Shown here: piece by piece, positions 51,058-51,449 of the stretch
Layout: each line of letters starts with the position of its first letter
Position numbering within the stretch: the first letter of the stretch is position 1
Origin: Escherichia coli
GTDB taxonomy: Bacteria; Pseudomonadota; Gammaproteobacteria; Enterobacterales; Enterobacteriaceae
DNA length: 64,000 nt
Assembly: GCF_044324875.1 (NCBI RefSeq)
Contig: NZ_CP172185.1
Reading direction: 5' to 3' (one strand)
The notes under the pieces: model-generated
The model's input: the letters and a program-made list of their open reading frames with translations, nothing else
Database searches by the model: none
What the model was told of the DNA's origin: nothing
Position numbers and translations under genes: made by a program

Positions 51058-51449
51058 AGGGGCTTCATCCGAATTGCGCCATTGTTGCAATGGCGGTTTT
51101 TATTGTTTTTCACGACAGTAACCGCACCTACACTGTCATGACATTGCTCACCCCTATGTGTAACAAATAACCACACTGTGAATGTTGTCTTTAATCAATT
51201 GTAAGTGCATGTAAAATACCACTTTAGAGTTAGTCAGTATCTTCCTCTTTTTCAACAGCATGCATAACTGCATGTTCCTCAAAGAATTAATCAACTTTTG
51301 TTGCTGACCTTCAAAAATTACCCTGCCGTTTATTTGCACAATTCTACTTTTGCGTGATCTGTCGCCCAAATACTAAACAAAACTGTCAATACCCCTACAT
51401 TTAACGCTTATGCCACATATTATTAACATCCTACAAGGAGAACAAAAGC
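51058..51449. promoter_or_regulatory. Divergent nrfA / acs control region
   Basis: 392-bp AT-rich spacer between divergent nrfA and acs; includes a possible FNR half-site pair TTGATtaaaGACAA (minus strand, about 51185-51198). Site assignments are tentative. Confidence 0.45.

Follow-up and report, generated by a model that had tools for sequence, protein, structure and literature searches.

The divergent nrf and acs operons of Escherichia coli are separated by a control region that ranks among the most thoroughly dissected in bacteria. It illustrates well how a single short spacer combines signals of oxygen, nitrite/nitrate, nutrient quality and carbon status for two operons facing away from each other. 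The region as such is already known, and the question raised by its counterpart in the 64-kb stretch of E. coli DNA analysed here (the window) is whether the arrangement of sites mapped in K-12 is kept. The useful yield of the analysis is an exact map of these sites in window coordinates.

The spacer between nrfA and acs

The preliminary description had placed an AT-rich 392-bp spacer between divergent nrf and acs operons, in agreement with the protein family scores, the coordinates and the base composition. On the minus strand, an open reading frame with its ATG at 51057 matched the NCBIfam model NF008339 (NrfA, 872 bits), with NrfB next to it; on the plus strand, the frame starting at 51450 matched NF001208 (Acs, 1120 bits) and is followed by yjcH and ActP. 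The genes nrfA to nrfG and acs-yjcH-actP all align to K-12. The spacer left between nrfA and acs is exactly 51058-51449, 392 bp, with a GC content of 0.383 vs 0.527 for the window. The flanking genes are as follows.

44682-51057, minus strand: nrfABCDEFG operon, assigned from NCBIfam matches to NrfA and NrfB; seven genes at 95-99% vs K-12
49621-51057, minus strand: nrfA
51450-55594, plus strand: acs-yjcH-actP operon, assigned from NCBIfam matches to Acs and ActP and the K-12 alignment
51450-53408, plus strand: acs
53634-53948, plus strand: yjcH
53945-55594, plus strand: actP

Comparison of the spacer with that of MG1655 (NC_000913.3, 4287372-4287763) revealed 390 of 392 identical bases and two substitutions, and the spacer was found once each in 5,413 of 5,426 complete E. 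coli genomes. Alignment columns 1-392 are counted from the acs side, and a window position equals 51450 minus the column. The K-12 region (Tyson 1994; Browning 2002-2010; Beatty 2003; Godfrey 2017) has the same genes and the same length of 392 bp, and its FNR and NarL/NarP sites, extended -10, acsP1 -10, CRP I and CRP II, acsP2 core, CsrA GGA and ytcB are all identical in the window. The suggestion that the site layout of this strain may be unlike that of K-12 was not upheld, since there are only these two substitutions and neither falls in a core recognition element. We conclude, with a probability of roughly 0.93, that the spacer is an nrfA-acs divergent control region of the K-12 type, equivalent in function to its K-12 counterpart; its protein binding and regulatory output we infer from the K-12 experiments.

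Promoters and regulator sites

In K-12, pnrf is bound by FNR at -41.5 and by NarL/NarP at -74.5 and initiates with C, and the O157:H7 promoter differs from it only at -7 (Godfrey et al. 2017, PMC5434802). The FNR 14-mer (columns 252-265) and the 7-2-7 site (columns 218-233) both put +1 at column 300, which is C in K-12, agreeing with the reported initiating base. The K-12 mutations fall into the same register: p14C (PMC5434802 supplement) hits the G at -14, in the TG of the extended -10; +102, the position of p+102A, is the third base of nrfA codon 3, AGG; and p63C (-63 of pnrf), which "disrupts the acsP1 -10" (PMC5434802 supplement), hits the second base of the TAAAAT at 51212-51217. Six independent anchors fit one pnrf coordinate frame, in which the features on the nrf side are located as follows.

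51150, minus strand: pnrf start (+1), placed by FNR and NarL/NarP spacing and the K-12 frame
51157-51165, minus strand: extended -10, TGtTACACA, K-12 type, with A at -7
51158-51172, unstranded: Fis-like 15-mer, one mismatch, centre -15 of pnrf
51185-51198, minus strand: FNR site TTGATTAAAGACAA, centre -41.5, also covering the acsP1 -35 zone
51217-51232, unstranded: NarL/NarP 7-2-7 site, TAACTCT-AA-AGTGGTA on the nrf strand, one mismatch, centre -74.5
51250-51283, unstranded: imperfect palindrome in the variable upstream zone, which should hold IHF II/III and Fis II/III

The TTGAT-N4-GACAA FNR-like site claimed earlier for the nrf side is indeed present as TTGATTAAAGACAA on the nrf strand; the plus strand at this site is TTGTCTTTAATCAA, which reads TTGAT-TAAA-GACAA on the nrfA strand. 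The Fis-like 15-mer at -15 is a candidate for Fis I, which overlaps the pnrf -10 (PMC5434802). Further upstream, the zone expected to contain IHF I-III, Fis II/III and NsrR is identical in sequence to K-12. The palindrome at 51250-51283 contains the half-site that most resembles NsrR sites, AACATGCAGTT (51266-51276, near -121 of pnrf), and according to the title of a published study NsrR binds "an upstream site". GATACT (columns 209-214) was also considered as the pnrf -10, because it is one change from TATACT, and was rejected: with that hexamer the nrfA ATG would fall at +173, whereas pnrf53 ends at +131, and -41.5 would be without an FNR site.

By analogy with K-12, pnrf (start 51150) would be a promoter with a weak core and an extended -10, activated by FNR bound at -41.5. 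NarL/NarP bound at -74.5 would displace IHF and thereby induce pnrf further, and in rich medium Fis bound over the -10 would shut the promoter. The E. coli nir promoter, at a different locus, likewise has FNR at -41.5 together with NarL/NarP, IHF and Fis, and shows class II FNR activation that nucleoid proteins restrain, a restraint lifted by NarL/NarP; unlike pnrf, it is neither paired divergently with acs nor shares its DNA with an acsP1 promoter.

The pnrf of enterohaemorrhagic E. coli (EHEC) O157:H7 has the same architecture and the same sites elsewhere, but T at -7 where the window has A. The EHEC promoter has an improved -10, is partly FNR-independent, and is insensitive to Fis and rich medium (PMC5434802). 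The -7 A>T allele (TACACT, column 293) was found in 296 records, led by O157:H7; the window reads TACACA, with A at 51157 on the nrf strand. With A at -7, the promoter should keep K-12 behaviour: the prediction for this strain is a pnrf that depends strictly on FNR and is repressed by Fis in rich medium, like that of K-12 and unlike that of O157:H7. The text of PMC5434802 prints the EHEC -10 as TATACT and O157:H7 genomes read TACACT; the stated position of the change, -7, agrees with the genomes. A C>T change at column 290 (TATACA) was examined as the EHEC change and discarded, as no genome carries it.

On the acs side, the acsP2 start is the C 20 nt before the ATG and the acsP1 start lies at -224 from the ATG (PMC2759082). 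The corresponding features in the window are as follows.

51212-51217, plus strand: acsP1 -10, TAAAAT; acsP1 start at 51226
51300-51315, plus strand: CRP II-like 16-mer GTTGCTGACCTTCAAA, weak (four mismatches), centre exactly -122.5 of acsP2
51325-51344, unstranded: conserved block, overlapping a Fis-like 15-mer with two mismatches, centre -98 of acsP2
51353-51368, plus strand: CRP I, CRP-like 16-mer CGTGATCTGTCGCCCA, centre exactly -69.5 of acsP2
51364-51378, unstranded: Fis-like 15-mer, one mismatch, centre -59 of acsP2, overlapping CRP I
51418-51440, plus strand: acsP2 core, with -10 TATTAT (51418-51423), start C (51430) and Shine-Dalgarno AAGGAG (51435-51440)

The acsP2 start is 280 bp from the pnrf start. 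Work by Beatty in 2003 is said to have placed the second CRP site of acsP2 at -122.5, the centre of the weak 16-mer found here. The same DNA (51300-51315) matches the FNR consensus with two mismatches (TTGCTGACCTTCAA), a better match than that to CRP, with four. The position acs -93 (the A of GTGA, window 51357) is within the first CRP site of acsP2 (PMC2763269). Fis represses acs (PMC3783194).

In the model transferred from K-12, the weak promoter acsP1 (start 51226) would overlap the FNR and NarL/NarP sites and be silenced on FNR binding, and acsP2 (start 51430) would be the main promoter, which CRP would activate from its tandem sites (-69.5 and -122.5), with Fis and IHF as modulators. FNR represses acsP1 while activating pnrf (PMC5434802). 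The "mutually exclusive expression" attributed to the region in the preliminary description therefore fits pnrf and the weak acsP1 (PMC5434802), but does not extend to the CRP-driven main promoter, acsP2. In a horse-derived E. coli strain (locus L005, NZ_CP091836.1), an IS1 is present in the spacer (2234-3000; window-equivalent 51247-51256), between the NarL/NarP site and CRP II. It has a target duplication of about 10 bp and separates acsP1 from acs, recalling a laboratory IS30 insertion that activates acs (PMC2763269).

Conservation of the spacer and its two substitutions

The spacer diverges from K-12 at 2 of 392 positions (0.51%), vs 62 of 2,676 (2.3%) for the other spacers of the neighbourhood, 2.35% for coding sequence and 5.6% for third-codon positions. 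The probability of two or fewer differences is 0.005 at the rate of the other spacers and 5e-8 at that of third-codon positions, and these rates point to clear purifying selection on the spacer.

The wider distribution was investigated by scanning a genome collection with a pattern anchored at the start codon of acs, which yielded 66 Enterobacteriaceae loci and did not capture Salmonella. Among these loci, a divergent nrfA upstream of acs is confined to Escherichia (spacers of 392-393 bp) and Citrobacter (431-436 bp), and does not occur in Klebsiella, Raoultella, Kluyvera, Buttiauxella, Hafnia or the others scanned. An alignment of 21 sequences, 6 from Escherichia and 15 from Citrobacter, revealed invariant columns throughout the NarL/NarP site (16/16) and the acsP2 -10 (6/6), and at most positions of FNR (12/14) and CRP I (14/16). 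The whole acsP2 core block, 51418-51440, is invariant. The IHF I/acsP1 zone adjacent to the NarL/NarP site has 16 of 18 invariant columns, and CRP II 6 of 16. Between CRP I and CRP II, GAATTGTGCAAAT (51332-51344) is invariant at 12 of 13 positions; the Fis-like 15-mer centred here at acsP2 -98 was read by eye from the alignment with K-12, and its assignment to Fis is putative. Invariant columns make up 27% of columns 151-217, where the 35-40-bp Citrobacter insertion falls; this zone is reported to contain the accessory pnrf sites for IHF and Fis and to differ in Salmonella.

The nrf regions of Salmonella Typhimurium and Citrobacter share the NarL/NarP-to-FNR block, the structured leader and the start-codon GGA. 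The Citrobacter spacers differ from that of the window in their length, in the upstream-zone insertion of about 35-40 bp and in having G or A at +1, and the Salmonella Typhimurium pnrf reportedly has an upstream insertion, lacks IHF III and differs at -3, +1 and +4. None of these features is found in the window, which has no insertion and has T, not a purine, at +1.

The two differences from K-12 are both C>T changes.

51150 (column 300, pnrf +1), minus strand: T in place of the K-12 C (C>T on the nrf strand)
51386 (column 64, acsP2 -44), plus strand: T in place of the K-12 C, in the stretch that separates CRP I from the -35 zone

Both alleles are in the minority. The T at pnrf +1 was found, as an exact 61-mer, in 126 of 5,412 records, and the T at acsP2 -44 in 28 of 5,407, including LF82 and NRG 857C. 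The two were found together in none of the 5,426 complete E. coli genomes, among which the best full-length match to the spacer was 99.7%. The region could be of the K-12 type and still have its expression measurably retuned, with the T at +1 changing the initiating nucleotide or shifting the start to a neighbouring G, and the T at -44 raising the A/T content between CRP I and the -35 zone and so altering RNA polymerase alpha contacts. The rarity of the alleles and the novelty of their combination among complete genomes are consistent with such retuning, as are the single-base effects known in the spacer (EHEC -7 and acs -93) and the small activity increases caused in K-12 pnrf by substitutions at +1 and +4, where the initiating base is said to matter. 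We nevertheless consider retuning unlikely. Both columns are among the least constrained of the 21-sequence alignment, because all four bases are seen at each (G12 C5 A3 T1 at pnrf +1; G8 A7 C5 T1, on the nrf strand, at acsP2 -44), both lie outside the core recognition elements, and the +1 change tested in K-12 pnrf, p+1A, gave only a small increase in activity. The variant at 51386 creates a CRP-like 16-mer (51384-51399), which was rejected as a candidate site, being a chance-level match with three mismatches whose centre at -38.5 is not a standard activating position. The substitutions are most likely neutral or nearly so.

Since each variant matches a different strain set, the spacer was also considered as a recombination junction. 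The nearest relatives differ between acs (99.4% identity) and nrfA (99.7%), but there is no exact donor, and the pattern looks like ordinary mosaicism. The surrounding 22-kb stretch, 40000-62000, has at most 98.9% identity to any of the 5,426 complete E. coli genomes and 97.6% to K-12. The source lineage of the window has no representative among these complete genomes.

A small annotated open reading frame shares DNA with the FNR site and with the -10 of pnrf.

51154-51210, minus strand: ytcB, 18 aa, K-12 b4821 in the RefSeq annotation of MG1655, with no differences from K-12

Conservation of the FNR site and the -10 could in principle reflect selection on the small protein YtcB instead of on DNA-binding sites. 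K-12 annotates ytcB and the frame is intact in all six Escherichia sequences, but its ATG is ATA in 12 of the 15 Citrobacter sequences, its length drifts between 16 and 33 codons, and the conserved block reaches well beyond it. As the DNA from the NarL/NarP site through the FNR site remains invariant where the ATG is lost, its conservation there is attributable to the binding sites. Moreover, transcription from pnrf begins downstream of ytcB, which is therefore missing from the nrf mRNA and would need another transcript. Selection on YtcB is thus a very improbable source of the conservation. A literature search for E. coli ytcB returned only an unrelated Bacillus gene of the same name.

Motif scanning by itself discriminates little. 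The FNR consensus TTGAT-N4-ATCAA at two mismatches, the level of the spacer site, gave 50 matches in the 64 kb vs 29 ± 6 in shuffles, and a bare consensus match is not beyond chance; the CRP consensus at three mismatches gave 174 matches in the window vs 205 expected, with no enrichment. The NarL/NarP 7-2-7 motif is more selective, with only two matches in 64 kb at one mismatch or fewer, one of them the spacer site. A generic sigma-70 scan of the region returned 0 promoters, as expected for activator-dependent promoters. Of the regulators whose sites the preliminary description had proposed to map by scanning, FNR, NarL/NarP, CRP (as CRP-like 16-mers) and Fis (as Fis-like 15-mers) were located; the IHF consensus scan of the region gave no match. 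The spacing on which that description had made its reading depend was recovered, with FNR at -41.5 of pnrf and CRP-like 16-mers at -69.5 and -122.5 of acsP2. As scans alone perform near chance, the identification of the sites rests on their identity to mapped K-12 sites, their exact spacing in independent frames and their conservation. The idea that AT-rich DNA has produced the FNR- and CRP-like motifs by chance and that the spacer is only a long gap without function, compatible as it is with the near-chance rate of such degenerate matches in the window and with the empty generic promoter scan, has a negligible probability, given matches at exactly -41.5, -69.5 and -122.5 in independently fixed frames, sequences identical to experimentally mapped K-12 sites, a divergence 4-10 times below that of neutral comparators, and invariance of the sites across two genera. 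Elsewhere in the window, the CRP consensus TGTGA-N6-TCACA is matched perfectly twice, at 16216-16231 and at 63659-63674, the latter in the yjcB-pdeC spacer.

The nrfA leader and neighbouring spacers

The coordinate frame of pnrf also defines the leader of the nrfA mRNA, which has the following elements.

51048-51050, minus strand: CsrA GGA motif, +101 to +103 (codon 3 AGG, then A), just outside the spacer
51058-51150, minus strand: nrfA 5' untranslated leader, +1 to +93 (93 nt), with its start taken from the K-12 frame
51068-51070, minus strand: auxiliary GGA, +81 to +83 of the leader
51077-51095, minus strand: leader hairpin 2, CGCCAUUG-CAA-CAAUGGCG, +56 to +74
51110-51141, minus strand: leader hairpin 1, 11-bp stem, +10 to +41

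In K-12, p+102A (AGG>AGA) relieves CsrA repression (PMC5434802). CsrA bound at this GGA, which closely follows the start codon, would likewise damp nrfA translation in this strain.

Both hairpins are maintained across the 21 sequences. In hairpin 1, 100% of cells are paired and 7 of the 11 pairs vary yet still pair, including A:U>G:C in three Citrobacter sequences; hairpin 2 stays paired in all 21, and one change in it, C:G>U:A, is compensatory. For the two hairpins together, 99.5% of cells pair vs 27-61% when the partners are slid, and 10 of 19 pairs vary while paired, with two compensatory double changes, in a structure that was derived from one of the 21 sequences and samples few independent events. 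The fold z-score of the leader is only -1.5, and an Rfam search of 50500-52000 gave sub-threshold noise only.

The role of the conserved nrfA leader has been described as unclear (PMC5434802). Read on the plus strand, hairpin 2 is a stem followed by a T-run, a terminator-like arrangement pointing toward acs. It is a tentative and rather doubtful proposition that the leader is a functional element in its own right, with hairpin 2 acting as a terminator or as a positioner of GGA motifs. As an intrinsic terminator on the acs-direction strand, hairpin 2 could keep antisense transcripts that leave nrfA from running into the shared control region; an alternative role, on the nrf strand, would be to hold the GGA motifs at +81 and +101 in place for a CsrA dimer.

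Two neighbouring spacers differ from their K-12 counterparts in content. The gltP-yjcO spacer, at about 42949-43026, lacks about 520 bp present in K-12. The yjcH-acs spacer, 53409-53633, has REP-type repeat content unlike that of K-12 (225 vs 199 bp), and only its ends align.
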